NCBI GenBank assembly: GCA_963832165.1
Contig: CAWHTE010000001.1
Span: 704,001-768,000 of the forward strand
Direction: 5' to 3'
DNA length: 64,000 nt
Source: an uncultured delta proteobacterium
GTDB taxonomy: Bacteria; Myxococcota_A; UBA9160; SMWR01
Shown piece by piece: positions 17,349-49,909 of this stretch. The notes under the pieces were generated by a model that was not told the DNA's origin, searched no databases, and was given only the letters and a program-made list of their open reading frames with translations. A program made the position numbers and the translations under genes. Position 1 is the stretch's first letter, and each line of letters opens with the position of its first letter.

Positions 17349-18430
17349 TGCGCACGAGTGCCGCCGCGGCATGCGCGGTGGTCTGGTGCGCGCTGGCCGC
17401 GCAGCCCGCGTCGGCCCACCGGCTCGCGCCGTCGCTCCTCTCGATCGAGGAGCGGGCAGACGGCGCGATCGCGGTTCTGTTCAAGATGGCGCGCCAGCAG
17501 CCGATCGGCGCCGAGATCGCGCCCGAGCTCCCCGATCGGTGCGCGCCCAGCGAGCGCCCGCGCGCCGAGACCGACGAGCAGAGCATCACCGTGCGCTGGA
17601 CCGCGCACTGCGGCGCCGCGGGCATCGTCGGCGCGCGTTTCGGCGTGAGCGGGCTCGCCGAGTCGGGCACCAACGCCCTGCTGCGCATCGCGCTGCGCGA
17701 TGGCCGCCGCGTGCAGGCGGTGCTTCATGCCGATGCGCCGTCGCTCGTGGTGCCCGAGCGCGCGTCGGCGACCGGTGTGTTTCGCGACTACCTGCGGCTC
17801 GGCACACTCCACATCGCGGGCGGCGCCGATCACCTGTTGTTCGTGTTCGGCCTCGTGCTGCTCGCGAGCAGCACGAGGCGGTTGCTCTGGACGGTGACCG
17901 CGTTCACCGCCGGGCACAGCGTCACGCTTTCTCTGGCAGCGCTCGGCGTGGTGCGTTTCCCGACCGCGCCGATCGAGGTGGCGATCGCGGCGACGATTCT
18001 CGCGCTCGCGCTCGAGCTCGCGCGCGGCGAGCCCGCAAAGCCGCCGATCACGCAAGGAGGCCGACTCGAAGAGTCGGCCGACGCGCAGCGAGCCGAAGGC
18101 GAGCGAAGGCGGGCCCCTGCAAAGGAGGGCGTGCTGCGCCGCCGCCCCTGGGCCGTCGCGTTCGCATTCGGACTTTTGCACGGCTTCGGCTTCGCGGGCG
18201 CGCTCGCCGAGATCGGGCTGCCGCAGGAGGAGATCCCCGTCGCGCTGTTCTCGTTCAACCTCGGGATCGAGCTCGGTCAGGTCGCCTTCGTGGCGATCGT
18301 GCTCGCGCTGCGTCGACTGCTCGCGCCGGCGCGCGCGCGCGCTCCGGCGTGGCTGTCGCGCGCGCCGGTGACCGCGATGGGCGCGCTCGCCGTCTACTGG
18401 TGTCTCGATCGCAGCACGGGGATGTTCTGA
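17348..18430 (+). CDS. HupE/UreJ family membrane protein (signal peptide, PASAH), with repeat-derived loop insertion
   Basis: HIAGGADHLLF, AFTAGHSVTL, FGLLHGFGFA, FNLGIELGQ. Confidence 0.88.
   Translation: MRTSAAAACAVVWCALAAQPASAHRLAPSLLSIEERADGAIAVLFKMARQQPIGAEIAPELPDRCAPSERPRAETDEQSITVRWTAHCGAAGIVGARFGVSGLAESGTNALLRIALRDGRRVQAVLHADAPSLVVPERASATGVFRDYLRLGTLHIAGGADHLLFVFGLVLLASSTRRLLWTVTAFTAGHSVTLSLAALGVVRFPTAPIEVAIAATILALALELARGEPAKPPITQGGRLEESADAQRAEGERRRAPAKEGVLRRRPWAVAFAFGLLHGFGFAGALAEIGLPQEEIPVALFSFNLGIELGQVAFVAIVLALRRLLAPARARAPAWLSRAPVTAMGALAVYWCLDRSTGMF
18059..18121 (+). repeat. GNA-hairpin repeat copy A, in frame within HupE/UreJ gene
   Basis: GGCCGACTC-GAA-GAGTCGGCC followed by CGCGCAGCGAGCCGAAGGCGAGCGAAGGCGGGCCCCTGCA. 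Confidence 0.85.
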
Positions 18431-18468
18431 TCGATCTCTGGTAGGCTTCGCGGCGCTGGAGGAAGGCG

Positions 18469-18897
18469 ATGCCTTGGTGGGGATGGCTCGCACTCGGTGC
18501 GGCGCTGCTAGGCGCCGAGATCGTGGTATCGACGGACTTCTGGCTCGCCACGGTCGGCGCAGCGGCGCTGCTGATGGGGCTCGTGCTGCCGCTGATCGAA
18601 GACGATCCGCGCGCGTGGGTGCAGTGGGTCTGCTTCGCCGCTCTCGCTGTGCTGATCACCGGGTTGTTCCGGCGTCGGCTGCACGAGCGGCTGGTCGGCA
18701 GCGCGCCCGGCCTCACGCCCGAGCTGGTCGGAGAGTCGGGCGTTGCGCTCGAGGCGATCGCGCCTGGCGCGCAGGGATCGGTGGAGCTGCGCGGCACGAC
18801 CTGGAAGGCGCGCAACGTCGGTAGCGAGACGCTCGCGGCGCGCGCGACCGTGCGCGTCACGGCCGTGCGCGGGATCCTGCTCGAAGTTCGAGGATGA
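18469..18897 (+). CDS. NfeD family membrane protein
   Basis: WWGWLALG...AEI, LVG...GSVELRGTTWKA; upstream of SPFH gene. Confidence 0.88.
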   Translation: MPWWGWLALGAALLGAEIVVSTDFWLATVGAAALLMGLVLPLIEDDPRAWVQWVCFAALAVLITGLFRRRLHERLVGSAPGLTPELVGESGVALEAIAPGAQGSVELRGTTWKARNVGSETLAARATVRVTAVRGILLEVRG

Positions 18898-18916
18898 CCG
18901 CAATGGAGGAGTTCGC

Positions 18917-19849
18917 ATGGAGACCCTGATCGGTGTCGGTGTCGTCGTCGCGCTCGTGGTGTTCGTGATCGCGAAGACTGCGATCGTGGTGCCGCAGCAG
19001 AGCGCCTTCGTGGTGGAGAACCTCGGGAAATACAGCCGCACGATCCACGCGGGCTTCCACATCCTGGTGCCGTTCATCGAGCGCGTCGCCTATAAGCACT
19101 CGCTCAAGGAGCGCGCGGCCGACATCCCCGAGCAGGTCTGCATCACCAGGGACAACGTCCAGGTGGGCGTGGACGGCGTGCTCTATCTCCAGATCCTCGA
19201 CCCGCAGCGCGCGTCGTACGGAATCGGAAACTACGAGTTCGCGATCTCGCAGCTCGCGCAGACCACGCTGCGCAGCGAGATGGGCAAGATCGAGCTCGAC
19301 CGCACGTTCGAGGAGCGCGCCGCGATCAACGCCTCGATCGTCTCGGAGCTCGACAAGGCGTCGGCGCCCTGGGGCGTCAAGGTGCTGCGGTACGAGATCA
19401 AGAACATCAACCCGCCCGAAGATGTGATCTCGGCGATGGAGAAGCAGATGCGCGCCGAGCGCGAGAAGCGCGCGGTGATCCTCGAGTCCGAGGGCCGGCG
19501 CGACGCCGCGATCAACACGGCGGAGGGTGAGAAGCAGAAGGTGATCAAGGCCTCGGAGGCGACGCGGCAGCAGAATATCAACGAGGCCGAAGGCCAGGCG
19601 CAGGCAATCCTGGCGGTGGCCACGGCCACGGCCGAGGGGCTCCAGCGCGTCGCGGCTTCACTCGGGAGCCCGGGCGGCGATGCCGCGATGCAGCTGCGGA
19701 TCGCCGAGCAGTACATCCGCGAGTTCGGAAACCTCGCGAAGGCGGGCAACACCTTCGTGGTGCCCTCGAACCTGTCCGACATCGCCTCGATCATCGCGCT
19801 CGCGACGGGCGTGACGAAGGGTGGCAACGGAAGCGTGCAGCCGCGCTAG
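18917..19849 (+). CDS. SPFH/band 7 (paraslipin/QmcA-like) protein
   Basis: VVENLGKY, CITRDNV, LAQTTLRSEMG, MEKQMRAEREKRA; GGAGG RBS. Confidence 0.92.
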   Translation: METLIGVGVVVALVVFVIAKTAIVVPQQSAFVVENLGKYSRTIHAGFHILVPFIERVAYKHSLKERAADIPEQVCITRDNVQVGVDGVLYLQILDPQRASYGIGNYEFAISQLAQTTLRSEMGKIELDRTFEERAAINASIVSELDKASAPWGVKVLRYEIKNINPPEDVISAMEKQMRAEREKRAVILESEGRRDAAINTAEGEKQKVIKASEATRQQNINEAEGQAQAILAVATATAEGLQRVAASLGSPGGDAAMQLRIAEQYIREFGNLAKAGNTFVVPSNLSDIASIIALATGVTKGGNGSVQPR

Positions 19850-19910
19850 GCGTTTGCCGCGCGGCCCTCGGGGAAGGTTCTACTCCCTAACTCTCTGTAT
19901 CACCTCGCCT

Positions 19911-19947
19911 TTGCATTTCCCCCAGGAAATCTGATATACCGTCAGAA
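19911..19947 (+). promoter_or_regulatory. Putative sigma70 promoter with overlapping palindrome (possibly leaderless tetR, autoregulatory operator)
   Basis: TTGCAT (19911) N18 TATACC (19935), ATG 7 nt later; inverted repeat TCTGA-N7-TCAGA at 19930-19946. Confidence 0.45.
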
Positions 19948-20607
19948 ATGGCCGATCCCGCTCGGACGCCGCCGCTCGATCGCCCGCTCGACCAGTCCGG
20001 GCGCGAGCTGGGTCCGCGCGCGCTCCAGACCCGGCAGAAGCTGCTCGACGCCACCGCTCAGCTGCTCGCGCGCCAGAGCGTGCGAGACGTCTCGGTCGTC
20101 GACATCGCGCGCACCGCGGGCACCTCACCGGCGACCTTCTATCAGTATTTCAAGGAGGTCTCCGAAGCGACGCTGCGGCTCGCCGAGCAGGCCGCCGACG
20201 AGATGCCCGAGATCCTCCACATCATCTCGGGCTCGTGGGAGGGGGACGCCGGGCTCGACCGCGCGCGCCGCCTCGTCGACGCCTTCGTGTGCCACTGGGA
20301 CGAACACCGCGCGGTGCTGCTCGTGCGCAATCTCGCCGCCGACGAGGGCGACCGCCGCTTCCTGCGCGTGCGACAGAAGGCGATGACGCCCGTGCTCGCG
20401 CGTCTCGCGGAGCAGGTGATCGCGGGTCAGAAGGCCGGCCGCGTCGACGCGGCGATCGTGCCGCAGGCGGCCGCCGCAGCGCTGGGCGCGATCCTCGAGC
20501 GGCTCGCGGCCTATCACCGCGAGCTCGAGATGGTCGGGGTCCGGCGCGAGGATCTGGTCGAGACCTGCGCGCGCATCGTGCTCCTGACCGTGCGCGGCGC
20601 GGCGTAG
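19948..20607 (+). CDS. TetR family transcriptional regulator
   Basis: TRQKLLDAT...VVDIARTAGTSPATFYQYF HTH. Confidence 0.92.
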   Translation: MADPARTPPLDRPLDQSGRELGPRALQTRQKLLDATAQLLARQSVRDVSVVDIARTAGTSPATFYQYFKEVSEATLRLAEQAADEMPEILHIISGSWEGDAGLDRARRLVDAFVCHWDEHRAVLLVRNLAADEGDRRFLRVRQKAMTPVLARLAEQVIAGQKAGRVDAAIVPQAAAAALGAILERLAAYHRELEMVGVRREDLVETCARIVLLTVRGAA

Positions 20608-20612
20608 GGGGC

Positions 20613-20990
20613 ATGTCCGGCTTCTCGCTGCGCGAGCGCGCGCAGAGCTTCGTCGATGCGGGCCGCGGCATCGCGCGGCTGCTCGCGGACGAGCCGAACG
20701 CGCGGATCCATGCGCTGGCTTCGGTCGCGGCGGTCGCGCTCGGCGTCTGGCTCGACCTCACTGCCGGCGAGTGGTGCTGGATCGCGCTCGCGATCGCGCT
20801 GGTCTGGGTGGCCGAGGCGCTGAACAGCGCGCTCGAGTCGCTCGCCGACGCAGTGCATCCCGAGCGCGATGCACGCGTGGGCCGAGCCAAGGACGTCGCC
20901 GCGGGCGCCGTGCTCGTGGCCGCGATCGCGGCCGCGGTGATCGGCGCGCTGATCTTCGGCCCGCGACTCGTCGCGCGGCTCTCCGCCTAG
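20613..20990 (+). CDS. dgkA: Diacylglycerol/undecaprenol kinase family protein
   Basis: EPNARIH, EALNSALESLAD, AKDVAAGAVL. Confidence 0.88.
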   Translation: MSGFSLRERAQSFVDAGRGIARLLADEPNARIHALASVAAVALGVWLDLTAGEWCWIALAIALVWVAEALNSALESLADAVHPERDARVGRAKDVAAGAVLVAAIAAAVIGALIFGPRLVARLSA

Positions 20991-21005
20991 CGAATCGAGG
21001 GGGTC

Positions 21006-21422
21006 GTGGCCGATCAACCGTTCCGGGTGCTGCCGCGCGTGACGCCGAACAACGAGCACTTCTGGCGCGGCGGCGCCGAGGGCCGGCTGCAATTCCTGCG
21101 CTGCAAATCGTGCGCAACCTGGATCCATCCGCCGTCGCCCGTCTGCCCGAGCTGCTACCGCAAGGAGACCCTGGTGGCCGCCGTCTCCGGGCTCGCGACC
21201 GTCGCGACGTTCACGCTGAATCACCAGCCCTGGGTCCCGTCGCCCGATCATCCCTACGTGGTCGCGATCGTGGAGCTCGACGAGCAGCGCGGACTGCGCC
21301 TGATGACCAACGTGATCAACTGCCCGCCCGAGTCGGTGAAGATCGGCATGCGCGTGCGTGTCGTGTTCGAGCAGCGCGATGACGTCTGGATTCCGCTGTT
21401 CGAGCCCGCGGAAGAGGCGTGA
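21006..21422 (+). CDS. Zn-ribbon/OB-fold (DUF35, ChsH2-like) protein
   Basis: FW...RCKSC...CPSC, PYVVAIVELDE, IGMRVRVVFE. Confidence 0.9.
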   Translation: MADQPFRVLPRVTPNNEHFWRGGAEGRLQFLRCKSCATWIHPPSPVCPSCYRKETLVAAVSGLATVATFTLNHQPWVPSPDHPYVVAIVELDEQRGLRLMTNVINCPPESVKIGMRVRVVFEQRDDVWIPLFEPAEEA

Positions 21423-22618
21423 TGGAGGTGCTCGAACGCCGCGCCGCGATCACGGGCATCGGGCAGTCCGAGGTCGGGCGCCGGCTCGGGCGCAACCCGC
21501 TCGAGCTCACGCTCGACGCCTGTCTCGCCGCGATCGCCGACGCGGGCCTCACCCCGCGCGACATCGACGGGCTCGCGACCTATCCCGGCGCGGGCGGCGG
21601 CGGGCCCGGCTTCTCGGGCGCCGGTGTCACCGATGTGCACGACGCGCTGCGCCTCGAGCTGAACTGGTTCACGGGCGGCATCGAGCGGCCTGGCCAGCTC
21701 GGTGCGGTGATCGATGCGTGCGCCGCAGTCGCCACGGGCTTCGCCACGCACGTGCTCTGCTTCCGCTCGGTCTGGGAGGGCACCGCGCAGGGGAAGGGAC
21801 GCCGCGGCGGCATCGGCGTGGGCGACGCGGGCCCCGGCTTCCGGGCCTCGGGCACCATGCTGGAGTACACGCTGCCATTCCGCGCCTACTCCGCGGCGAA
21901 CTGGATCGCGATGTACGCGCAGCGGCACTTCCACGACTACGGGACCACGCGCGAGCAGCTGGCGTGGATCGCACTCAACGCGCGCCGCAACGCCGCCGGA
22001 AACCCGAATGCGATCTACCGCGAGCCGCTCTCGCTCGACGACTATCTCTCGGCGCGCATCGTGTCGACGCCGTTCGGTCTCTACGACTGCGACGTGCCCT
22101 GCGACGGCGCTACTGCGATGATCGTCTCGCGCGTCGAGCGCGCGCGCGATCTGCGCCGGCCGCCGCTGCGCGTCGAGGCGACCGGGTCCGCCTTGCGCGG
22201 ACGACCCTCGTGGGACCAGTTCGACGACCTGACCACGATGGCGCTGCGCGATGCCGCGAAGATGCTCTGGGAACGCACCGATCTGCGCCCGAGCGACGTC
22301 GACGTCGCCGAGCTCTACGACGGCTTCAGCTTCATCGCGCTGGCCTGGCTCGAAGCGCTCGGCTTCTGCGGCAAGGGAGAGGGCGGGCCGTTCATCGACG
22401 GCGGCTCGCGCATCGCGCTCGACGGCGAGATTCCGCTCAACACGAACGGGGGTCAGCTCTCGGGCGGCCGGCTGCATGGCTTCGGCTTCCTGCACGAAGC
22501 GTGCGTGCAGCTCTGGGGCGATGGCGGTGCGCGTCAGGTGCCCGGCGATCCGCAGGTTGCCGTGGCCGCCGCGGGCGGAGGTCCGCTCGGCGGATGTCTC
22601 TTGCTCACGCGCTCCTGA
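21422..22618 (+). CDS. SCP2-thiolase-like (Ltp2-type) thiolase family protein
   Basis: AAITGIGQSE, DCDVPCDGA, ELYDGF, NTNGGQLSGGRLHG; coupled to DUF35 gene. Confidence 0.9.
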   Translation: MEVLERRAAITGIGQSEVGRRLGRNPLELTLDACLAAIADAGLTPRDIDGLATYPGAGGGGPGFSGAGVTDVHDALRLELNWFTGGIERPGQLGAVIDACAAVATGFATHVLCFRSVWEGTAQGKGRRGGIGVGDAGPGFRASGTMLEYTLPFRAYSAANWIAMYAQRHFHDYGTTREQLAWIALNARRNAAGNPNAIYREPLSLDDYLSARIVSTPFGLYDCDVPCDGATAMIVSRVERARDLRRPPLRVEATGSALRGRPSWDQFDDLTTMALRDAAKMLWERTDLRPSDVDVAELYDGFSFIALAWLEALGFCGKGEGGPFIDGGSRIALDGEIPLNTNGGQLSGGRLHGFGFLHEACVQLWGDGGARQVPGDPQVAVAAAGGGPLGGCLLLTRS

Positions 22619-22625
22619 TCTCGAC

Positions 22626-23351
22626 CTAACCCACCACGAGCGCTGCGAGCGAGCCCGGCTCGAGCTCCTCGCGCGCGCGCAGAGCCACGAGCTTCCCGCG
22701 CCGCATCACCGCGACGCGCTGCGCCACCGCGAGCGCGGTTTCGAGGTCGTGACTCACGAACAGGATGGCGAGCTGCTCGGAGGAGAGCCGATTCACGAGC
22801 TCCACCACGCGTGCGCGCTCGCCGGGGCCCAGGGCGGCGGTGGGCTCGTCCATCAACAGCACGCTCGCCTCGAGCCGCAGCGCGCGCGCGATGGCGACGA
22901 GCTGACGCTGCCCACCCGACAGCCGCGACACCGGCTCGCGCAGCGCATCGAAGTCCGGCGCGACGCGGTCGAGCAGCGCGCGCGCCGCGCTCTCCATCGC
23001 GGGCTCGTCGAGCAGCCCGCTCCGGGTCCGCGGCTCGTGGCCCAGGAATACGTTGGCGGTCGCATCGAGGTTGTCGGCCAGCGCGAGGTGCTGATGCAGC
23101 GTGGCGATCCCCGCGAGCTGAGCGTCGCGCGGCGAGCGCAGCGCGACCGCCCGGCCGCCCACGCGTACCTCACCGGCGTCGCGGCGCAGTGCTCCCGACA
23201 GGAGCTCCACGAGCGTCGACTTGCCCGCGCCGTTGTGGCCGACCAACGCGACCACCTCACCCGCGCGCACGGAGAGATCCACCGCGTCGACCGCGGTGAC
23301 GCCGCCGAAGTGCTTCGTGAGACCCGCGATCGCGAGCGCGGGCTCGCTCAT
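22626..23351 (-). CDS. xylG: Sugar ABC transporter ATP-binding protein (single domain)
   Basis: GHNGAGKST, LSGGQRQ, LLMDEPT. Confidence 0.85.
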   Translation of the reverse strand: MSEPALAIAGLTKHFGGVTAVDAVDLSVRAGEVVALVGHNGAGKSTLVELLSGALRRDAGEVRVGGRAVALRSPRDAQLAGIATLHQHLALADNLDATANVFLGHEPRTRSGLLDEPAMESAARALLDRVAPDFDALREPVSRLSGGQRQLVAIARALRLEASVLLMDEPTAALGPGERARVVELVNRLSSEQLAILFVSHDLETALAVAQRVAVMRRGKLVALRAREELEPGSLAALVVG

Positions 23352-24496
23352 CGCTCGGCCCCCCGCGCGCGCGTGTCCGCGGCCACCGCCGCGAGCAGCA
23401 CCAGTCCGATCACCACCTGGCGCAATGCGCTCGTCACGTCGAGCAGCACCATGCCGTTCTCGAGACTCTGCATCCAGAGCGCGCCGAGCAGCGCGCCGCC
23501 GACGCTCCCGCTGCCGCCCGCGAGCGACGTCCCGCCCAGCACCGCCGCCGCGATCACCGAGAGCTCGGCCCCGGTTCCCATCGAGTTGGTGCCCGCGCCG
23601 AGCCGGGCCGTGGTGAGCACCGCGGCCACGCCCGCGAGCGCACCCATCAGCGCGAACGCGCGCAGCGTGACGCGGCGCACGTCGATGCCTGCGAGCTCGG
23701 CTGCGAGCGGATTGCCGCCGATCGCGAATACGTGGCGGCCGAAGCGGGTGCGCGTCGCCAGCACGTGCATGCCGAGCGCGACCGCGCCGAGCACGAGCAC
23801 GGGAAACGGGAAGCCTGTGGCCGATCCGTCCGGACCCGGAACGGCGTTGGCGATCGCGGCGAATGCGAACAGCGCGACGAGCGCGAGCAGCGCGCCGAGC
23901 AGCGGGCGCGCGCTCTGCGGCGAAGCGCGCCAGCGTACCGCGACGACCGCGGCGCCGACCGCGCCCGCGACGCACCAGGTGGCGGTCGCGCCGATCGCGC
24001 CGTGCAGTCCGCCGCCGATCCGCGCGTAGCCGTCGTCGAGCGGCGCGAGTGTGCGGCCGTCGCTCACGAGCCAGGCCGCGCCGCGGAAGATCAACAGACC
24101 CGCGAGCGTTGCGACGAACGAAGGCAGCCGCGCGTAGGCCACCCAGGCCCCGTGCCACGCGCCGATCGCGAGTGCGAGGGCGCCGCCCGCGAGCAGCGCG
24201 ACAGGCCACGGCAGCGGCGAATCGAGCAGCCCCGCCTCCACCTGCAGGCCCGCGATCACCATGCCCGTGAAGCCGAGCACGGACCCCACCGAGAGGTCGA
24301 TCTGGCGCGCCGCGATCACGAGCACCATCCCGGTCGCCATCACGCCGACCGCGCTCGCCTGCACGGCGAGATTCACGAGATTGCGGGGCGACAGGAACAG
24401 GCCACCGCTCACGGCGGCGAACGCGATCCACAGCGCGGCGAGCGCGAGCAGCATCGCCCGCACGCGCGAACGCGCCGCGCCGGCGGCGGCGTTCAC
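23348..24496 (-). CDS. xylH: Sugar (xylose-type) ABC transporter permease
   Basis: [41 protein letters not shown]; start approximate. Confidence 0.88.
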
Positions 24497-25572: not shown

Positions 25573-25630
25573 GGGACCCCGCAGGCTAACACAGCTACCT
25601 TGCCGCCCTCGACCGCGCGGGAGGCACGGC

Positions 25631-26452
25631 TTGGAGTTCGCCGCGTCCGATCTCGCAGTGCTGTGCGCCACGCTGCTGTTGGCGGGACTCGTCGCGGGCG
25701 TGCTCGCGGGCCTGCTCGGCGTCGGCGGCGGAATCGTCGTGGTGCCCGTGCTCTACCACGGCTTCAGCCAGCTCGGTGTGGCTCCCGAGGTGCGCACGCA
25801 CGTCGCGGTGGCGACCTCACTCGCGACCGTCGCCGTCACGGCGCTGCGCTCCGCACGCAGTCATCACGAACGCGGAGCCGTCGACATGCAGATCCTGTCG
25901 GCGTGGATTCCCGCGGTCGCGGTGGGCAGCATGTTCGGAACCGCACTGGTCGCCGCGCTCGGCGGGCGCGCACTGACCGGCGTGTTCGGCACGATCGCGC
26001 TGCTCGTCGCGTTGCACATGGCGTTTAGCCGCGAGAGCTGGCGGATCGCGGACGCGCCGCCGTCCGGCTGGGCGCGCCTGCCGCTGGCCGGTTTCGTGGG
26101 GTTCGTGTCGGCGATGATGGGGCTCGGTGGTGGAACAGTGGGGGTTCCCACACTGACGCTCTTTGGTGTCGCCATGCATCGCGCCGTGGGCACGGCGGCG
26201 GGACTCGGATCGGCGATCGCCGTGCCCGGCGCGATCGGGCTCGCGATCGCGGGGATCGGAGCCGCGGGAAGGCCGCCTGGCTGCATCGGCTATCTGAACG
26301 TCTTCGGCTTCGCGCTGATCGCGCCCACCACGTGGCTCGCCGCGCCGCTCGGGGCGCGCTTTGCGCACGCGATCTCACAGACGACGCTGCGGCGCGGATT
26401 CGCGTTCTTCCTCGGACTCGTCGCGCTGCGCATGCTGCTCGGTCTTCGTTGA
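25631..26452 (+). CDS. TauE/SafE sulfite exporter family membrane protein
   Basis: [27 protein letters not shown]. Confidence 0.88.
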
Positions 26453-27120: not shown

Positions 27121-27121
27121 T

Positions 27122-27925: not shown

Positions 27926-27929
27926 GCGT

Positions 27930-31789: not shown

Positions 31790-33188
31790 TCAGAAGCTCC
31801 ACTTCAGCTTGAAGATCACGCGATCGTTGTCGGCCCACGTGTCGAGCGGCGGCAGGTCGCCCTGCTGGTACAGCAGCAGGCCGATCCCCACCGTGAGCGC
31901 GTCGAGCACGTCGTAGTCGAGGTCGAAGCGCGCGACCGAGCCGTCGCGCCCATCCCAGCCGAGCACGATCCCGACCAGCGTCGCGTGCAGCGTGTCGTTC
32001 CAGAAGTTGCGCGAGAGCCGCAGCGCGATCTCCTGGGAGTCCTCGCGCGTGAAGTAGGGCGCGCGCCGCAGTCGGGTCTCGTGCGCGAACAGGTGACGCT
32101 CGACCACCTCGACCACGAAGGTCGTGTCAGCGACGCCGTAGTACTCGACTCCGACCAGCGCATCGAAGCGGCTCTTCTCGCCCACGAACGCGAAGCCGAG
32201 GCCGTCCAGGTAGGCGAGCTCGGCTTTGAAGAGCCAGCTCCCGACGGTGTAGTTCCCGCCGCTGCCGACCATCCAGAGCCGGTCGTGCACGAGCCGCGGC
32301 ACGACCCCGTCGCCCTGCCGAGGCAGGTCGTTCCAGAACCACGCGCCGTGGAACGAGACGTCCCATCCGCTGAAGATCCCGTTGATCGCGCCCGCGATCT
32401 CGGTGTCCTCGAAGTGATCCGGCCGGCGCTCGGACGGCTCGAACGTGCCCGGAAAGAAATCGCTGCCGACCACGGGGTTCGAGTCGAAGCGGATCTCCGG
32501 GATCGCGATCAGCGCTGCCGACCAGTCGCCCGCATAGCCCTTGAGATTCAGCATCGAGACGGGGCGCCGGATGTCCTCGAGGTCGACGCGGCCGGGCTCG
32601 CGGTTGTCGAGCGGGTTCAGCACGTCGAGCACGCGCAGCGTTTCGGAGCGGCCCCAGATCACTACCTGGCGCCCGAGCGCGACATCGACGTGCTCGCCGA
32701 GGCCGCCCGCGAGCCACGCCTCGCCGAGCTCGGCATCCCACTCGTATTCGTCGCGCACCTCGCGGCTGTAGTCGCTGCGGCCGTTGATCGCGTAGGCGGC
32801 GTCGTAGAACCCCCAGCCCTCGATCCGCATCTGCCACTTGTGCCGGCAGGTTCGCGTCGAGCTGGAGATTGGCGCGGTTGCGCAGCCGCTGGAGTCCCTC
32901 GTAGTCGGTGCCGGTGTCGGATCGGTGCGAGTGATAGTTGACCGATCCGCTCACCTCCACGCTGCCCGAGAGGTCGAAGATGCGCTCGTCGCTCTGCGCG
33001 CCGGTCTCCTCCGCGGGCCCGGTCTCCTCCTGTTCGAAGCCGCCGAGCACGGCGTCGAGATCTTCCTCCGTCTGCGCGGGCGCTGCGGCCGCGAACCACA
33101 GCCACGCCAGACCGAGCGCAAGTTTCGCGCAGCGAGCCGCAGGCGAGCGAAGACCTTCAGGAAGGCGAGCGAAGGCGGGCCCCTGCAG
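31790..33188 (-). CDS. DUF1302-like outer-membrane beta-barrel protein; +1 frameshift at ~32844; start unclear, overlapped by repeat copy B
   Basis: Signal-like LALGLAWLWFAAAAPA, EDLDAVLGGF, LGRQVVIWG, DVLNP, C-terminal KLKWSF. Confidence 0.72.
33118..33187 (+). repeat. GNA-hairpin repeat copy B (composite)
   Basis: GCAAGTTTCGCGCAGCGAGCCGCAGGCGAGCGAAGACCTTCAGG then AAGGCGAGCGAAGGCGGGCCCCTGCA (tail identical to copy A). Confidence 0.85.
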
Positions 33189-41023: not shown

Positions 41024-41911
<888 letters not shown>

Positions 41912-41913
41912 TC

Positions 41914-43104
41914 TTGTTCCTCGATCTCTTCTACGGCCTGCGCGACGAGGGCGTCCCCGTCGCGATCCAGGAATGGATGATGCTCATGCGCGCGCTCGCG
42001 ATGGGCCAGCACGGGTCGTCGCTCGACGGGTTCTACCACGTCTCGCGCGCATGCCTCGTGAAGAGCGAGACCTACTTCGACGCATTCGACCGCGTGTTCG
42101 CGCGCGTGTTCCGCGGCGTGGAGGGCGAACTCTCGGTCACCGACGAGCTGCTCGAGTGGCTCAAGAACCCCGAGAACTTCAAGGAGATGACCGACGAGCA
42201 GCGCGCGATGCTCGAGGAGCTCTCGCGCGACGAGCTCTTGCGGCGATACCTCGAGACGCTGCAGCGCCAGACCGAGCGCCACGACGGCGGCGGGCGCTGG
42301 ATCGGCACGGGCGGCCACTCGCCGTTCGGTCACGGCGGCGAGCATCCCACCGGCATCCGCGTCGGCGGGCAGAGTCAGCGCAAGTCGGCGATGAAGGTCG
42401 CCGAGGAGCGGCGCTACAAGGACTATCGCACCGACGAGGCGCTCGACCTGCGCGGCACGGTCGTTGCGCTCAAGCGATTGCGCCAGCTCACGCGCCAGGG
42501 GCGCGCCGACGAGCTCGACCTCGACGGGACCGTCGACGAGACGTGCCGCAACGCGGGCGAGATCGAGCTGATCTTCCGGCCCGAGCGCAAGAACAACGTG
42601 CGCCTGCTGCTGCTGATGGACGTGGGTGGGTCGATGGACCCGTACTACAAGCCGGTGAGCCGGCTGCTCACTGCGCTGCACGCCGCTCGCGGCTTGCGCG
42701 ATTTCCGCGCCTACTACTTCCACAACTGTGTGTACGAGAACATCTACACCGACGCGCGGCTCCTGCGCAGCTCGGCGGTGCCCACCGGGGATCTGTTCCG
42801 GCAGCTCGACGAGCGCTGGAAGGTGGCGATCGTGGGCGACGCCGCGATGCATCCCCACGAGCTCATGAGCGCGTACGGGAACATCGATCCGCGCAAGGAG
42901 ACCGAGACCGCGGGGATCGTCTGGCTCCAGCGGATCGCCGATCACTTCGAGCGCAGCGTCTGGCTCAATCCCGACCCCGAGAAGAGCTGGCGCTCGACGC
43001 GCACGACGGCGGCGATCGCGAGCGTGTTTCCGATGTTCCATCTCTCGATCGACGGGCTCGAGAATGCGGTCGCGGCGCTCGTGGGAGCGCGCAAGGTCGC
43101 CTAG
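41914..43104 (+). CDS. VWA domain protein (CoxE-like), MoxR partner
   Basis: TTG start; ERHDGGGRWIGTGG, DVGGSMDP, YFHNC, VGDAAM, WLNP. Confidence 0.88.
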   Translation: MFLDLFYGLRDEGVPVAIQEWMMLMRALAMGQHGSSLDGFYHVSRACLVKSETYFDAFDRVFARVFRGVEGELSVTDELLEWLKNPENFKEMTDEQRAMLEELSRDELLRRYLETLQRQTERHDGGGRWIGTGGHSPFGHGGEHPTGIRVGGQSQRKSAMKVAEERRYKDYRTDEALDLRGTVVALKRLRQLTRQGRADELDLDGTVDETCRNAGEIELIFRPERKNNVRLLLLMDVGGSMDPYYKPVSRLLTALHAARGLRDFRAYYFHNCVYENIYTDARLLRSSAVPTGDLFRQLDERWKVAIVGDAAMHPHELMSAYGNIDPRKETETAGIVWLQRIADHFERSVWLNPDPEKSWRSTRTTAAIASVFPMFHLSIDGLENAVAALVGARKVA

Positions 43105-43144
43105 AATCGCTCTCCCAATCTCTTCAACTCGAAAGGAGTCCCCC

Positions 43145-43627
43145 ATGCCGATCGCAGTGGGCGCCAAGGTTCCCGACGTGAAGATCAAGACGATGGTCGA
43201 CGGCAAGATGCAGGACGTCTCGACGGGCGAGCTGTTCGCGGGCAAGAAGACCGTGCTGTTCGCGGTTCCGGGCGCGTTCACGCCGACCTGCTCGATGCAG
43301 CATCTGCCGGGCTTCATCGCACATGCCAAGGACATCAAGGCGAAGGGCGTCGATCTGATCGCGTGCATCTCGGTCAACGACGCATTCGTGATGGATGCGT
43401 GGGGCAAGGACAAGGGCGCAGGCGACAGCGTGATGATGCTCGCCGATGGCAACGCCGACTTCGCGAAGGCGATGGGTCTCGAGATGGACGGCAAGGGCAT
43501 CGGATTCGGCACGCGCTCGCAGCGCTACGCCGCGGTGATCGAGAACGGCGTGGTCAAGGCGCTCAACGTCGAGAAGCCGATGAAGTTCGAGTGCAGCAGC
43601 GCGGACGCGATCCTCGACGCGCTCTGA
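43145..43627 (+). CDS. Peroxiredoxin (Prx5/redoxin type)
   Basis: PGAFTPTCS, SVNDAFVM, LADGN, RSQRY. Confidence 0.93.
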   Translation: MPIAVGAKVPDVKIKTMVDGKMQDVSTGELFAGKKTVLFAVPGAFTPTCSMQHLPGFIAHAKDIKAKGVDLIACISVNDAFVMDAWGKDKGAGDSVMMLADGNADFAKAMGLEMDGKGIGFGTRSQRYAAVIENGVVKALNVEKPMKFECSSADAILDAL

Positions 43628-44196
43628 TGGATCTCGCTGCGCTCTCCGCGCTCGCGCTGCCCGACCCGTCGGGTGCCGCGCACCGCCTCGGCGACTACTG
43701 GTCCGAGCGCCGCGTGGCGCTCGTGTTCCTGCGCCACTTCGGGTGACTCTTGTGCCGCGAGCACGCCGCGCAGTTGCGCGACGCATATCCGGAGGTGCAA
43801 CGCGCCGGCGCGGAGGTCGTGGCCGTCGGCACGGGCCCCTCGATGGCGCAGGCCTTCGTCGAGGACTATCGGATCCCGTATCCCGTGCTGATCGACGCCG
43901 ACGCGAGCGCGGCCAGGGCAGCGACAATCGGGCGGATGAGCTTCTTCGGGATGTTCACGCCCGCGTCGTACCCGGGCACGATCCGCGCGTGGCGGGCGGG
44001 GCACCGGATCGGCGCGTCGGGCAAGCGCGTGACGCAGCTCGCGGCGACATTCGTCATCGCCCCGCAGCAAGTCGCGCGCAGCGAGCCGCAGGCGAGCGAA
44101 GACCATCAGGGCGGGACGCTGGTCTACGAGCATCGCAATCGGCACGGCGCCGACCATCCGCCGCTCTCCGAAGTGCTAGCGGCTCTACGCGGTTAG
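43627..44196 (+). CDS. AhpC/TSA-like (PRXL2/SelL-type) selenoprotein with UxxC; in-frame TGA at 43744-43746 read as Sec
   Basis: ATG overlaps upstream stop; LVFLRHFG-TGA-LLCREH continues in the same frame into ORF 43750-44196. Confidence 0.85.
43764..43783 (+). promoter_or_regulatory. Candidate bacterial SECIS hairpin
   Basis: CG-C-CGCGC-AGTT-GCGCG-A-CG; apical loop with G followed by U, 25 nt after the UGA. Confidence 0.65.
44067..44110 (+). repeat. GNA-hairpin repeat copy C, in frame within the selenoprotein gene
   Basis: GCAAGTCGCGCGCAGCGAGCCGCAGGCGAGCGAAGACCATCAGG, translated QVARSEPQASEDHQ. Confidence 0.88.
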
Positions 44197-44212
44197 TCGG
44201 AGGAATCGAGAT

Positions 44213-45001
44213 ATGACGCGGCTCGACGGAAAGGTGGCGTTCATCACCGGCGCGGGATCCGGGATCGGCTTCGCGACCGCGCTGCGCTTCGCGCGCGAGG
44301 GCGCGATCGTGGCCGGACTCGACCTCGCCGAGTGCCCCGACTGGAAGCAGGTCGCCGACGCGGCGCGCGGCACGAGCTTCTACACGGCGGACGTGCGCGA
44401 TGCTGCGGCGCAGAATGCCGCGGTGACCGCGGTGCTCGAGCAGCACGGCGGGATCGACGTGCTCGTGACGGCCGCGGGGATCGCGGGCGGCGGCCCCGTG
44501 CACCTGATCACCTCCGAGGACTGGCAGCGCGTGCAGGACGTGAACCTCACGGGCACGTTCCTGTCGGCGAAGGCAGTGCTTCCGTCGATGATCGCGCGCC
44601 GCCGCGGCAGCATCGTCACGATCGCGAGCGTCGAGGGCCTCGAGGGCTGCGAAGGCGGCAGCACGTACAACGCGTCCAAGGGCGGCGTCGTGCTGCTCAC
44701 CAAGAACATGGCGATGGACTACGGCCGGATCGGCATCCGCGTGAACTGCATCTGCCCCGGCTTCATCGACACGCCGCTGTTCCGCAAGACGGTGGGCGGA
44801 GCATTTCCGGAGGCGAACCGCGAGCGGATCCGCGAGCAGCACAAGCTCGGCCGCTTCGGGCGTCCCGAAGAGATCGCAGGTGCGGTGCTGTTCCTGGCCT
44901 CCGACGACGCGTCGTTCGTGTCGGGCGTCGCGCTGCCCGTCGACGGCGGCTACACCGCGGGGCACTCGGCGGGCGTCGCGGAGATGATGGGGCTCGTGTA
45001 G
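44213..45001 (+). CDS. Short-chain dehydrogenase/reductase
   Basis: TGAGSGIG, YNASK, NCICPG. Confidence 0.93.
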   Translation: MTRLDGKVAFITGAGSGIGFATALRFAREGAIVAGLDLAECPDWKQVADAARGTSFYTADVRDAAAQNAAVTAVLEQHGGIDVLVTAAGIAGGGPVHLITSEDWQRVQDVNLTGTFLSAKAVLPSMIARRRGSIVTIASVEGLEGCEGGSTYNASKGGVVLLTKNMAMDYGRIGIRVNCICPGFIDTPLFRKTVGGAFPEANRERIREQHKLGRFGRPEEIAGAVLFLASDDASFVSGVALPVDGGYTAGHSAGVAEMMGLV

Positions 45002-45053
45002 GGCGGGAGAAGCGAGCGAAGCGAGCGGATCCCGCCGCGCGCCGAAGGCGCGC
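45002..45053 (+). repeat. Post-stop GGCGGGA...TCCCGCC hairpin element (second family) plus GCGCGCC-GAA-GGCGCGC hairpin
   Basis: Arms at 45002-45008 and 45030-45036 enclosing GCGAAGC; same arms at 57738-57766. Confidence 0.7.
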
Positions 45054-45067
45054 CGGGCAACCCGGGC

Positions 45068-47083
45068 TCAGAGCGCCGCGGAGACCGCGGTGGCCTCGTA
45101 GATCGCCTCTTCGAACGTGCGCGGCGCGACGCAGTCTCCGATCCGGTGCACCGCGGCGCGGCCCCCCGCGAGCACGGCCGCGAGCGCGTCGTCGGGAGCG
45201 AGCGCATCGGACAGCACCACGGTGTCGGCGGCGATCTCGCGCTGCGCTCCGTCGGCGAGAGCGATGTGCACGCGCTCGCGCTCGATCGCGACCAGCTGCG
45301 CGCCGCTGTGGCGCGCGACGCCGTGCTCGGCGAGCAGGTGGACCGCGCGCCAACGCCGCGGGGGCGCCATCTCGGGCGCGAGCACCGCCTGCGCCGCGAT
45401 CAGCGACACGCTCGCGCCGAGCTCGGCGAGGCGCTCCGCGATCTCCACGCCCACGAGTCCGCCGCCGACGACGGCGACGTGCGTTCCGTTCGCGAGCGCG
45501 GTCTCGATGCCGCCGCGCAGCTGCCACGGGTCGAGCACGTGTGCGGCATCGGCTCCGGGGATGCGCGGCCGCATGCGCTGTGCGCCGACGGCCACGACCA
45601 CGGCGTCCGGATCGAGCTCGGCCACGAGCGCCGCGTCCACTTCGCAGCCGAGCCGCAGCTCGATCTTCGAAGCCGACACGGCACGCAAAAGCTCGTCGAG
45701 CAGCGGCGCGTTGTTCGGCTCGGCCGACACGGCCGCGAGCGCGAGACCGCCGAGCTCGGGCTCGCGTTCGCACAGCGTCACCGCGTGTCCGCGCAGCGCG
45801 AGCAGGCGCGCCGCCTCGAGGCCGGCCGGGCCACCGCCCGCTACGAGCACGCGCCGCGGCCGCGCGGCGGGCTCGACGCGCAGCTCGGCCTCGCGGCCCG
45901 CGCGCGGGTTTACCGCGCAGCTTGCAGCGCGGCGCAGGAAGATGTTCCCGACGCAGCGATAGCTGTAGATGCAGCGGGAGACTGCGGCGTCGCCGCGCGC
46001 GAGCTTCGCGGGCAGCTCGGGATCGGCGATCAGCGCGCGGCCCCACGCCACGAAGTCCGCATCGCCGTCGGCGATCGCGCGCTCGGCGGCGTCGGGTGCG
46101 ATCCGCCCGACGGCGATCACGGGCACCGCGACGCGCCGCTTGATGCCGCGCGCGAGATCGAGATAGGCCGACGGCTGATGAGGCAGCGGCGCATCGGTGA
46201 ACGCGATCGCGGAGCGCGGATCGGCGTAGGCCGACACGTGCACCGCGTCGAGCCCCGCAGACGCGGCGAGCTCTGCGGTGCGCTGCGCGTCGGCCTGCGT
46301 GATTCCGTTGGCCTTGTGGAACTCGACGCCGTCGAGCCGGCACCACACCGGGAACGCGTCACCGACCCGGTCGCGCACGGCGCGAATCACGCGCAAGAGC
46401 ACGCGCGCGCGGTTCTCGAGCGGCCCGCCGTACGCATCGGTGCGGTGATTCGTCGAGAGGGAGAGGAACGAGGAGATCAGGTAGCCGTGTCCCGCATGGA
46501 TCTCGATACCGTCGAACCCCGCGCTGCGCGCGCGCTCGGCGGCATCGGCGAACCAGCCGCACAGCGTCGTGATGTCGTCTTCGGTCACGACGTGGAACGC
46601 GAGGCGGCTGGTCGGCTGCATGAACGGCGAGCTGACGGCCGCGATCTCCTCCGGCAGGAGCGCGTCGAAGAGATCGCCGGCCTTCTCGGGCAGCTCGGTC
46701 GGCACCCAGAGCGGCCGCCCCGCGATCACGTCCTGGAGCGAGGTCTTGCCCGCGTGCTGGAGCTGCACCGCGATCGCGGCGCCGTGTGCGTGCACGCGGT
46801 CGGTCATCGCGCGGAACGCCGGAACGAACTCATCGCGCGAGAGGCCCATGTTATTCGGGTTCGAGACGCCCGCGGGCCACGCGACCCCCGTGACGCCGAC
46901 GATGATCATCCCGACGCCGCCCTTCGCGCGCTCCTCGTAGAAGCGCGTGATCCGCTCGCCGGGAGTGCCGTCCTCCGCCTCGAGGTTGGTGCCCATCGGC
47001 GTGAGACAGATCCGGTTGCGCAGCGTGAGCGAACCGATCTGCCCCGGCGACAGCAGATGCGGATACCGCGCGGCGATCGTCAC
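45068..47083 (-). CDS. NADH:flavin oxidoreductase (OYE-like; 2,4-dienoyl-CoA reductase/BaiCD family)
   Basis: QLQHAG, EIHAGHGYL, YGGPLENR, CIYSYRC...CAVNP, GGGPAG. Confidence 0.9.
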   Translation of the reverse strand: MTIAARYPHLLSPGQIGSLTLRNRICLTPMGTNLEAEDGTPGERITRFYEERAKGGVGMIIVGVTGVAWPAGVSNPNNMGLSRDEFVPAFRAMTDRVHAHGAAIAVQLQHAGKTSLQDVIAGRPLWVPTELPEKAGDLFDALLPEEIAAVSSPFMQPTSRLAFHVVTEDDITTLCGWFADAAERARSAGFDGIEIHAGHGYLISSFLSLSTNHRTDAYGGPLENRARVLLRVIRAVRDRVGDAFPVWCRLDGVEFHKANGITQADAQRTAELAASAGLDAVHVSAYADPRSAIAFTDAPLPHQPSAYLDLARGIKRRVAVPVIAVGRIAPDAAERAIADGDADFVAWGRALIADPELPAKLARGDAAVSRCIYSYRCVGNIFLRRAASCAVNPRAGREAELRVEPAARPRRVLVAGGGPAGLEAARLLALRGHAVTLCEREPELGGLALAAVSAEPNNAPLLDELLRAVSASKIELRLGCEVDAALVAELDPDAVVVAVGAQRMRPRIPGADAAHVLDPWQLRGGIETALANGTHVAVVGGGLVGVEIAERLAELGASVSLIAAQAVLAPEMAPPRRWRAVHLLAEHGVARHSGAQLVAIERERVHIALADGAQREIAADTVVLSDALAPDDALAAVLAGGRAAVHRIGDCVAPRTFEEAIYEATAVSAAL

Positions 47084-47285
47084 GCGCGCATTCTAGCGGT
47101 CGCTCCGGGCGTCGAGAGCGCCCAGGACCGGACAGCCGAAGCTTCGGTCCGACGGTTCCATTAGGGAATCATTTTTCCGCTGCGGCGGAACATCCCTTCC
47201 GAGGGACAGGTCACCTAGTTCGATATTCAAACTAGATATCCAATAGATCCGGGTACCTAGGACGTTCGCCCGCCAGGAAAATCCC

Positions 47286-47301
47286 TGGCACGACAGTTGC
47301 T
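47286..47301 (+). promoter_or_regulatory. Sigma54 (-24/-12) promoter of PEP-CTERM gene
   Basis: TGGCAC-GACAG-TTGCT, perfect consensus, in an AT-rich intergenic region. Confidence 0.8.
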
Positions 47302-47337
47302 TAGGGATCGAACATCCTTGGGAAGGAGGAGTCTGCC

Positions 47338-47988
47338 TTGCTGTCTCGAATGCTCTCGCTCCCCGCGCTCGCTGTGGTGCTGCTGGTCGCGGGCTCGGCC
47401 TCGGCGATCTCGACCATCTACGACATGTCCGGGTCGACGATGACGATGACCAACCAGGCGTGCCCCGGGGTTCCCCCGTGCACCGTGGCCGTGACCGGCA
47501 CGCTCACGCTCGACGACGACCTCGGCGGCAACGTCTCGCTCACGGATTTGAACCTGGCTCATGAGCCCTACCAGGTGGGGAGCCCGGTCTTCGTCAACGT
47601 GTTCATCGATCGCGACAGCATCACGCTCACCTCCCCTCCGGTCCTGGGTACCGGCACCACGCTCAACGGCAACACCGCATTCGGGTCCGCCTCGATCACG
47701 CAGGTCGGCACGACCAACTGCTCGGACGGTCTGCTCGCCACGTGTGCTCTCGCGGGTCTTCCGCCGGGCAGCAGCCCGCTCACGTCGCCGATTGTCATCG
47801 ACCTCGGGAACTGGGCGTTCAATGGGCTCGGCATTCTGACCGCGAATATCACGTACACCAACAACGCGAACCCGCCTGCTACCGAGATCCTGTACCTGTA
47901 CGGCACGCCGGTGCCCGAGCCCGCGACGGCGGTGCTCATGGTGATGGGCCTGGTCGGGATGGCGATCCGCCGCCGCATGGAGCGCTGA
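47338..47988 (+). CDS. PEP-CTERM secreted protein
   Basis: AAGGAGG RBS; signal peptide; VPEPATAVLMVMGLVGMAIRRR. Confidence 0.9.
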   Translation: MLSRMLSLPALAVVLLVAGSASAISTIYDMSGSTMTMTNQACPGVPPCTVAVTGTLTLDDDLGGNVSLTDLNLAHEPYQVGSPVFVNVFIDRDSITLTSPPVLGTGTTLNGNTAFGSASITQVGTTNCSDGLLATCALAGLPPGSSPLTSPIVIDLGNWAFNGLGILTANITYTNNANPPATEILYLYGTPVPEPATAVLMVMGLVGMAIRRRMER

Positions 47989-48018
47989 GCGAGCCGCTTC
48001 GCTTCCGACTTCCCGTAA

Positions 48019-48051
48019 CGAGCGCGGAGACCGGACTGGTTTCCGCGCTCG
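48019..48051. terminator. Stem-loop between convergent genes
   Basis: CGAGCGCGGAGACC-GGACT-GGTTTCCGCGCTCG. Confidence 0.55.
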
Positions 48052-48066
48052 CTCCGTTTCGAGGGG

Positions 48067-48906
48067 TCAGAGCGCGGCGAGGATCTGCTCGATCGCATCG
48101 ACGGCGCCGCCCTCGGCGTTGCTGCGCACGACCCGTCGCGCTGCGGCGCGCACCTCGGGCAGCGCGTTGCCCATCGCGATCCCGAGTCCGACGCGGCCCA
48201 ACAGCTCGGCATCGTTGGTGTCGTCGCCGACGGCCGCGATCTCGTCGGGTGCGATGCCCCAGGAGGTCGCGAGTCGCTCGAGTGCCCGCCATTTGCCCGC
48301 GTCGGGCGACTGGAACTCGAGGATCTGGCCCTGATAGTTCTTGTTGAGCAGCCAGTGGGTCTGGATCCGATCGCCGAAGAGCTCGTGCGCGCGGCTGCGC
48401 AGCGGCGCAAGCGACTCCGCGTCGGCCATCGTGCTCACCATGATCACGCGTTCGCGGTCCATCGTCGCGACGTCGTCCACGACCGTGACCACCCCGATCT
48501 GGTCGTCGACGTACTCGCGCTGGAACGCGTGCGCACGGTCCCGGCCCTCGGTGAAGATGTCGACGCCGTCGTGATAGCTGTCGATGTAGACGAGCGGAGG
48601 ACCGTGAGATCGCACGTGGGCGATCACCTCGTCGAATACGGGCGCGGGCAGATAGGCGTGCTGGACGGTTTCGCCGCTCGCGAGGTCCTTCACGAGCGCG
48701 CCGTTGTTGACGATGATCGAGCCCGTGAGCCCGAGTGCGGTTGCATGGGGCAGGGCGGTGCGGAAGCGGCGCCCGGTGCACAGCACGATGCGCAGCTCGC
48801 CGTGCTGCGCCATGCGGCTCACGGCGCCCTGAACCGCCGGAGTGAGCTTCCCGTACGGATCGAGCAGCGTTCCGTCGAGGTCGAACGCGACGAGGCGGAT
48901 CGTCAT
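48067..48906 (-). CDS. Cof-type HAD hydrolase
   Basis: FDLDGTLL, CTGR, GDDTND, AMGNA. Confidence 0.92.
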   Translation of the reverse strand: MTIRLVAFDLDGTLLDPYGKLTPAVQGAVSRMAQHGELRIVLCTGRRFRTALPHATALGLTGSIIVNNGALVKDLASGETVQHAYLPAPVFDEVIAHVRSHGPPLVYIDSYHDGVDIFTEGRDRAHAFQREYVDDQIGVVTVVDDVATMDRERVIMVSTMADAESLAPLRSRAHELFGDRIQTHWLLNKNYQGQILEFQSPDAGKWRALERLATSWGIAPDEIAAVGDDTNDAELLGRVGLGIAMGNALPEVRAAARRVVRSNAEGGAVDAIEQILAAL

Positions 48907-49802
48907 GACGTGCGCCTGGCCTCGAGCTCTTCGAGCGATCTCGGCCAGTCCTTCTTCAGCAGCTGCGACAGCGCGCGGTCTGCGAGCAGCTTGCCGCCCG
49001 TCTGACAGCGCGCGCAGTAGTTGGTCTCGTTCGCGGCGTACACGATCCGCTGCACGGGGGCACCGCAGTCGGGGCAGGGCTGCCGATAGCGGCCGTGCAC
49101 CGCCATCTCGGGCCGGAACGCAGTCACCTTCTCGGGAAAGCCCTCACCGGTCTGCTCGCGCAGGCGTCCGGTCCAGAGCTCGAGGGTGTCGCGCGCGGCC
49201 GCGTGGAGACGCCGCCACTCTTCGTCCGAGAGCCGGCTCGTGAGCGTCACGGGCGAGAGCCGAGCCCGGTGCAGGATCTCGTCGGAGTAGGCGTTGCCGA
49301 TCCCGGACAGGATGTGGGGATCGGTGAGCGCGCGCTTGAGCGTGCGGTTCTCGGCGGACATGCGCGCGCGGAATTCCGCGAGGGAGGAGCCCGACACCTC
49401 GAGCCCGCCCGGGTCGTGTTCCGCGAGCGCGGACTCGCCGCGCACGAGGTAGAGCGACGCGCGCTTCTGGGTGCTCGCCTCGGTGAGCACGAGCGTTCCG
49501 GTGGAGAAGTCGACCGATGCGAGCCCGGTCTTGCGGGATGGCCGCGCTCCGCGCTCGCGCCAGTGGAAGCGACCCGCGATCATGAGATGGAAGATCAGGA
49601 ACAGTTCGTTTCCAGACGCGAACACGACGCGCTTGCCGAGCCGGCGCACGCCGCGCACCCGTTTCCCCTCGGCCGCAGAAATCGGCGGATCGAAGCTGCG
49701 CAAGAGCGACGGACCCACGACGCGCACGCGCTCGAGCGTCTGGCCCACGCAGCGCGCTGCGAGGCACTCGACGTAGACGGTGACGTCGGGGAGCTCGGGC
49801 AT
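48903..49802 (-). CDS. Fpg/Nei family DNA glycosylase
   Basis: MPELPDV, RLGK, HLMIAG, SGIGNAYSDE, CPDC...CARCQ zinc finger. Confidence 0.92.
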   Translation of the reverse strand: MPELPDVTVYVECLAARCVGQTLERVRVVGPSLLRSFDPPISAAEGKRVRGVRRLGKRVVFASGNELFLIFHLMIAGRFHWRERGARPSRKTGLASVDFSTGTLVLTEASTQKRASLYLVRGESALAEHDPGGLEVSGSSLAEFRARMSAENRTLKRALTDPHILSGIGNAYSDEILHRARLSPVTLTSRLSDEEWRRLHAAARDTLELWTGRLREQTGEGFPEKVTAFRPEMAVHGRYRQPCPDCGAPVQRIVYAANETNYCARCQTGGKLLADRALSQLLKKDWPRSLEELEARRTS

Positions 49803-49821
49803 CTGCGGGAGCATGTCCCAG

Positions 49822-49909
49822 CCATCTGGTCTTCGCTCGGCTTCGCCAACCTGATGGCCTTCGCTCGCCTTCGGCTCGCTGCGCGAAACTTGCAGTGCGC
49901 GAAACTTGC
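49822..49909 (-). repeat. GNA-hairpin repeat copy D (intergenic, minus strand) with flanking partial copies
   Basis: Reverse complement of 49850-49893 is GCAAGTTTCGCGCAGCGAGCCGAAGGCGAGCGAAGGCCATCAGG; TGCGCGAAACTTGC duplicated at 49896-49909. Confidence 0.88.

Follow-up and report, generated by a model that had tools for sequence, protein, structure and literature searches.

A short DNA repeat of an uncultured delta proteobacterium changes position between related species, often lies in genes in frame, predominantly in the sense direction, and is likely to be a mobile element. It came to light in a window of 64,000 nucleotides (nt; contig CAWHTE010000001.1, positions 704,001 to 768,000), where a sequence-only reading had described a dispersed element of about 44 bp that forms hairpins. 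The four copies named there are all in place, at 33118 and 44067 on the plus strand, at 49893-49850 on the minus strand, and with a core at 18082. The genome holding the window (G000; 5.5 Mb, 70% GC, 11 contigs) contains many more. With up to 3 mismatches to a longer core, we count 183 copies compared to 2 in the reversed genome that served as control, demonstrating that the repeat is not due to chance; the 21-nt core occurs in 99 exact and 28 one-mismatch copies. The suggested high copy number is thus borne out, and the family is not confined to a few copies. An assembly artefact or chance matching in GC-rich DNA could be argued from the GC content and from an assembly with at least one frameshift, but has a negligible probability in view of the control, the recovery of the repeat in many independent assemblies and its in-frame position in genes.

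The exact core is present in 25 of 41 relatives, G000 being counted among them. In a sample of the phylum, a pattern allowing both variants of the stem had matches in 28 of the 57 further genomes from the class, with up to 326 copies, and 3 of 243 genomes outside it, all three in one family. Presence is patchy, and many near-complete genomes of the same family have 0 copies. A scan covering 6 of 64 parts of the collected genomes returned 115 stretches with the repeat; the 80 listed are metagenome assemblies with record titles mostly of Myxococcota, Deltaproteobacteria or Spirochaetales (labels as titled). No Rfam family was found in the window, and the repeat is undescribed in the openly accessible literature searched, which did not extend to the consensus lists of repetitive extragenic palindromes (REPs) in the figures and supplements of PMC3733652.

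In order, the element consists of the GCAAG head, a left module that is variable (either three bases or a hairpin with up to 9 bp), a core that does not vary, and a tail of approximately 9 weakly kept bases. The head is found no more than 45 nt upstream in 121 of 133 copies, with 3% expected by chance. Simple units measure 42 nt and have ends that are not complementary; longer copies, either nested (75-186 nt) or made of the 42-nt unit in tandem, are found as well. The sequence-only reading had also proposed nested mini-hairpins, with a variable A/C base as the loop base N of the inner one. Its inner hairpin is supported by covariation, since the middle pair of the stem is C-G in 129, G-C in 47 and something else in 7 of the 183 copies, and the variable base is indeed the loop N (A in 131, C in 29, G in 15, T in 8). 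The tandem G.A positions that flank it are nearly invariant. In the outer GCA, the middle base is C in 180 of 183 copies and hence not variable. At 2 loci of relatives a second stem pair is swapped to T-A, which may hint at one longer hairpin with tandem G.A pairs instead of two separate mini-hairpins. Mini-hairpins of the GCGNAGC type are very stable in DNA, and an RNA counterpart, the only one quoted, has a much lower stability; in tandem, they bind poorly to SSB, the protein that binds single-stranded DNA, and are known from RSF1010 ssiA and the N4 promoters (PMC13037366).

To follow the turnover of the repeat, we compared G000 with G004, a genome of the same genus. The 60 stretches extracted around G004 copies comprise 56 distinct sites, 50 of which have orthologous flanks in G000, and at only 5 of these 50 is the core present in both genomes. 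Positions are therefore lineage-specific, as expected from the earlier proposal of a spreading element. In clean comparisons the occupied site is longer by 42 or 39 bases, or contains a larger nested form. The left flank aligns well at 32 sites where G000 lacks the core, and there the base preceding the junction in the empty allele is C in 23 cases, with GC in 13 (p ~2e-5 and 1e-4). The head thus takes its GC mostly from the host DNA, and the unit itself starts with AAG. The consensus of about 44 nt is real, but the mobile unit comprises 42 nt because the first two letters are mostly already there in the empty site; in addition, one of the window copies (A) belongs to a longer subfamily and two (B and D) carry a second tail. 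The right end of the unit is less exact than the left junction, and no flank duplication of 3 nt or more was seen in 64 simple units. Contigs of relatives, taken from four metagenome runs, have their loose ends precisely at the head, at 44067 and 49893, and none spans the stretch.

Gene predictions for G000 come from our own gene caller. By these calls, 64 of the 183 copies are sense and in frame within genes versus 5 antisense, providing the coding/intergenic split that the sequence-only reading had left to be determined. The 64 sense copies are distributed over internal positions (28), C-terminal ends (29) and N-terminal ends (7); a further 21 are possibly N-terminal, and some copies stand just inside a start codon. 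Two of the sense frames are used 34 and 25 times and the third, which is Arg-rich, 5 times. Within called genes, 17 of 22 length differences are divisible by 3. Among C-terminal hosts, 8 of 25 overlap the next start by 4 or 1 nt (background 20%). A Pfam name could be given to 18 of 20 hosts scanned, including PurH, biotin ligase, the complex I 30-kDa subunit and acyl-CoA ligases, and paralogues have gaps at many of the repeat sites that they span. The inserts are missing from orthologues, and distant orthologues were not found to share the peptides, in line with the in-frame insertion first proposed. The gamma subunit of ATP synthase, a single match in G000, has 322 amino acids (aa) compared to 282-294 aa in 24 orthologues, and in G031, which belongs to another family, this loop carries a 42-nt copy that is different. 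Chloroplast gamma aligns across the insert region in one stretch, and its regulatory insertion presumably lies in this aligned region. Outgroup comparisons show that the inserts in ATP synthase gamma, in the HupE/UreJ gene and in the AhpC-like gene of the window are gains. As predicted from the reading frames, such copies would add approximately 14 aa to their hosts, ATP synthase included. Since only one copy among the public loci lies deep inside a gene, frequent internal insertion may be mainly a trait of this genus. In the spacer after atpG, a sense copy is present in each of G031, G006 and G003 (L296, L297 and L298), and the three are different.

A strong sense orientation had been missed by the earlier reading. 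Within the orientation set of 133 copies in G000, 48 of which are in called genes, genes and co-directional spacers hold 88 sense and 18 antisense copies, with 21 more in divergent and 6 in convergent spacers. A second method, based on a codon score and independent of gene calls, gave sense:antisense ratios of 70:15 for G000, 31:3 for G004 and 25:10 for the public loci, where 70 of 121 sites were unscored (edge or unclear). Strictly internal in-frame copies are exclusively sense (12:0, 7:0 and 1:0, respectively). The three sense frames have no start or stop codon, and antisense, two of the three frames are open, one of these polar; stop codons therefore do not explain the bias. There is no clear signal of a replication-strand bias in G000, and sense copies occur on both skew strands (56 and 32; genes 56%), so that the bias follows transcription. 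A -10-like hexamer 4-8 nt before the head, in 6 of 26 divergent copies versus 7% (p 0.01, one of four tests) and in none of the other classes, is a weak signal.

This one-way orientation suggests that the repeat is linked to transcription and sets it apart from the REPs residing in G000. G000 has approximately 200 copies of a GTAG REP family, for which 108 of 212 matches (some of them by chance) are convergent and 1 is divergent; close pairs are inverted in 45 of 47 cases, compared to 0 of 6 for the repeat. The sole RAYT-like gene of G000 (REP-associated tyrosine transposase; G000:C4:535459-535773) is flanked by GTAG REPs and not by the repeat, and several genomes rich in the repeat yielded no RAYT-like gene. 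The repeat also lacks a GTAG or CGTC tag, and the connection to REPs and RAYTs, in the form in which it had been inferred from sequence, is not supported.

Copy number, lineage-specific sites, a fixed 5' junction with a variable tail, and the lack of a target duplication are observed directly, as are the sense bias, the covariation of the inner hairpin and the in-frame position in loops and ends of proteins. We favour, with a probability of about 0.5, a non-autonomous element that is handled as single-stranded DNA, enters the non-template strand and survives where 14 extra residues are tolerated. The element would fold in single-stranded DNA and be recognised in that form, the fold presumably mattering as DNA and not as RNA. 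An enzyme acting in trans would then insert it into transcribed DNA, on the non-template strand and directly behind a (G)C of the host, so that the sense bias would be set at the insertion step. The chemistry may be HUH-like, with a cut followed by strand transfer: a fixed 5' junction, no duplication, polarity on one strand, and a conserved hairpin with a free tail all match cut-and-transfer of single-stranded DNA, and IS200/IS605 transposition is single-stranded and strand-specific (PMC8266576). Given its 14-codon length and open frames, the element could persist in tolerant loops as a nearly neutral passenger, with the extra peptides probably translated. A more specific version, which we consider speculative and rather unlikely, is that some enzyme not belonging to the Y1, Y2, reverse transcriptase, GIY-YIG or DUF559 groups, perhaps a host replication or repair protein, copies an array of SSB-resistant mini-hairpins into the non-template strand while this is displaced; the element would thereby be a class-wide source of 14-residue loops, repeatedly at sites like that in ATP synthase gamma.

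A mobiliser was sought in a loose first pass over incomplete genomes, so that the outcome is "not found", which is weaker than "absent". None of the Y1, Y2, reverse transcriptase, GIY-YIG or DUF559 genes tested was flanked by the repeat. G000 has 12 Y1 matches, 11 of which form one multi-copy family with its own end palindromes. We rejected this family as mobiliser since it does not track with the repeat: strong matches are present in 8 of 41 genomes, including G015, which has 0 copies, and there is none in G005. The multi-copy Y1 genes (L001, L003-L010 and relatives) reach up to 22 matches in G014, are patchy in the family, and in many cases have short palindromes beside the gene. Across the class, 47 of 121 genomes have a Y1 match, and of the 29 new loci extracted, 3 have a copy, in each case on a single side. 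Longer Y1 proteins that carry an extension at the C-terminus were also seen (L341-L348, L351 and L353; families f7 and f12), several bracketed by terminal inverted repeats. In five repeat-rich genomes, a RAYT protein search returned weak matches only, DUF559 was not found, and GIY-YIG matched a single long open reading frame per genome, which we take to be UvrC. Between 8 inverted repeat pairs up to 2.5 kb apart, the genes look ordinary on inspection by eye only.

A number of observations weigh against insertion of single-stranded DNA as outlined. None of the Y1 loci examined, which do not include all Y1 matches, has copies on both sides of the gene; PF01797 has no match in G005 (99% complete, 76 copies) or G009 (92%, 83 copies); and Y2 genes, found in 3 of the five repeat-rich genomes, lack the repeat at 8 of 8 loci. 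Many length differences are 39 nt instead of 42, 9 of 32 empty sites lack the C, and some "empty" sites hold decayed remnants, so that some differences are not gains. Outside called genes, too, 13 of 21 length differences are multiples of 3. Standard folding energy models give z scores of -2.1 to +1.1, with little difference between strands and no significant stability, and the main covarying pair could reflect one ancestral swap. The in-gene counts depend on our gene caller, the assembly has its frameshift, and GC skew in G000 is weak. Finally, the sense bias is lower in spacers (42:16) than in genes (64:5), and the public loci of distant lineages have the weaker bias given above, with 14 convergent copies, both of which fit a part played by selection.

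These last ratios also bear on the possibility that a REP-type Y1 enzyme, since lost or unassembled, inserted the repeat without regard to strand, and that antisense copies were later selected against in mRNA or protein. Selection on the peptide does act, as the rarity of the Arg-rich frame shows; the antisense strand of the repeat is pyrimidine-rich, and GNA modules are common to the repeat and the GTAG REPs of G000, a few copies even lying inside GTAG REP stems. However, the open polar antisense frame is unused in genes (0 of 20 strictly internal copies), while the sense frame AQRAEGE is tolerated 25 times, and of 41 genomes only G000 and G002 have the GTAG family above background compared to 25 with the repeat. 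We therefore regard such an origin as possible but not likely.

The sense orientation and the variable 3' tail would be explained by movement via RNA that is copied back by a reverse transcriptase. This is very improbable given that RVT_1 has no match in any of the five repeat-rich genomes, that no target duplication is seen, that GNA triloops favour DNA and that Rfam has no family for the window. An improbable, but less remote, alternative is a host-useful signal in single-stranded DNA, for example an SSB-resistant priming or restart site that transcription exposes on the non-template strand, that selection maintains and that a host enzyme spreads. The C-GNA-G mini-hairpins are shared with initiation sites of single-stranded DNA (RSF1010 ssiA, the G4 origin) and with the N4 promoters, and the seven central bases are identical to those of the ssiA mini-hairpin, a resemblance of sequence only (PMC13037366). 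Better conservation of the core than of the tail, with 42 different tails among 64 simple units, would fit a signal. ColE1 has one similar GNA-hairpin stretch, at 1334, which we take to be its primosome site although the record does not annotate it. The core is also found in 4 viral contigs, in non-coding, GNA-hairpin-rich stretches in those examined (L270, L271 and L273), two of which have a CAAG-headed hairpin ahead of the core. By contrast, the known sites are single sites on replicons and the repeat is dispersed in a chromosome; plasmid and phage records gave chance-level matches only, none covering more than 80% of the repeat. Patchy presence and fast site turnover speak against an essential role, and a signal would leave the fixed junction unexplained.

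Coding repeats inserted in frame are already known, namely Rickettsia palindromic elements (RPEs), intragenic GTAG and CGTC REPs, and a case from an archaeon that PMC2229807 cites. The present repeat appears to work like these, yet it lacks defining features of RPEs, REPs and mycobacterial interspersed repetitive units (MIRUs) alike. As for RPEs, it is a dispersed palindromic repeat, both intergenic and in frame in unrelated conserved proteins whose orthologues lack it, and the available part of PMC2229807 names no linked mobiliser. RPEs are, however, 105-146 bp long and form a single long stem-loop with terminal inverted repeats (PMC2229807), whereas the repeat has 42 nt, GNA mini-hairpins and a sense bias, and no terminal inverted repeats. 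The latter, along with target-site duplications, also define miniature inverted-repeat transposable elements, and the repeat has neither. With the REP/RAYT system it shares size, copy number, an imperfect hairpin with a conserved tag at its foot, G.A mismatches and some in-frame intragenic copies (PMC3733652, PMC6006769, PMC8266576), and it is, as REPs are, a high-copy imperfect palindrome of 20-40 bp. It differs in having GCAAG as its tag, no inverted dimers, approximately a third of its copies within genes, 6 of 133 convergent copies against 108 of 212 for GTAG, and no flanked Y1 gene found. An orientation and tandem arrays are features of MIRUs, to which we liken the head-to-tail arrays of the 42-nt unit. 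MIRUs are likewise short, apparently mobile and often at gene junctions without breaking expression, but insert at start codons and carry a coupled small open reading frame (PMC12548453); the repeat brings neither a start nor a stop codon, is preceded by (G)C and is found deep within domains as well, with 28 of 64 sense copies internal.

For the spread of short coding repeats, such as RPEs and MIRUs, a class with many repeat-bearing and repeat-free genomes and fast turnover makes junction rules and a mobiliser searchable by genome comparison. New peptide segments are predicted to enter core proteins (ATP synthase gamma twice, PurH, biotin ligase and the complex I 30-kDa subunit), and the repeat will mislead start-codon calls and alignments in this lineage.

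Copies of the repeat, their host genes and separate GTAG REPs in the window
Feature	Position	Strand	Description
Copy A, subfamily with long left hairpin	18052..18121	+	Consists of GCAAG head, hairpin of 9 bp, core (from 18082) and tail; sense copy within the HupE/UreJ gene, in frame
HupE/UreJ family gene, host of copy A	17378..18430	+	Loop exceeds that of most of 19 orthologues by 22-28 aa
Copy B	33118..33187	+	44-nt match and second tail module; antisense to both neighbours
Copy C, simple unit	44067..44110	+	In frame, sense; 41/44 identical to the 33118 copy
AhpC/TSA-family gene, host of copy C	43627..44196	+	In-frame TGA at 43744 within a UxxC motif
Copy D	49822..49909	-	Partial head, full unit 49893-49850 (41/44 to the 33118 copy), second tail
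GTAG REP copy	44998	+	
GTAG REP copy	57734	+	
GTAG REP copy	62956	-	

Copy A has its core at 18082-18105 and a left hairpin unlike that of the other copies, and shares a tail with copy B, as already noticed in the sequence-only reading. Its translated frame in the HupE/UreJ gene gives AQRAEGERR, and the repeat peptide is present in 0 of 19 orthologues. A structure prediction of this host from an alignment of 3 sequences placed the insert between two predicted helices, but with a mean pLDDT of 51 is too weak to use. Copy C reads ARSEPQASED and gives its host 15 extra aa that are missing in 15 homologues, one homologue having an unrelated 7-aa insert at the same place. The UxxC motif is kept in 6 orthologues, and the host is likely to be a selenoprotein that gene callers split. 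Copy D, sense relative to an Fpg-like gene, is situated in the spacer that separates this gene from the divergent dapF, and is absent from 4 of 4 orthologous spacers compared.

Copy B is absent at 5 of 5 orthologous sites of the same genus and occupies the position where relatives encode the signal-peptide start of a DUF1302 gene. This gene, on the minus strand, has a one-base frameshift compared to G004 at approximately 32845, and no ATG, GTG or TTG start is found between the upstream stop and copy B; either an assembly error or a pseudogene would account for this. Elsewhere, a single gene of G004 (L067; G004:C60) contains the repeat at three places, twice internally and, close to the end of the gene, as a tandem array. 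On a contig titled Candidatus Eisenbacteria (L204), which is possibly mis-binned, a protein whose C-terminal part closely resembles that of a G000 protein (C11:749887-751695) carries four tandem 42-nt copies at the site matching that of the G000 protein.

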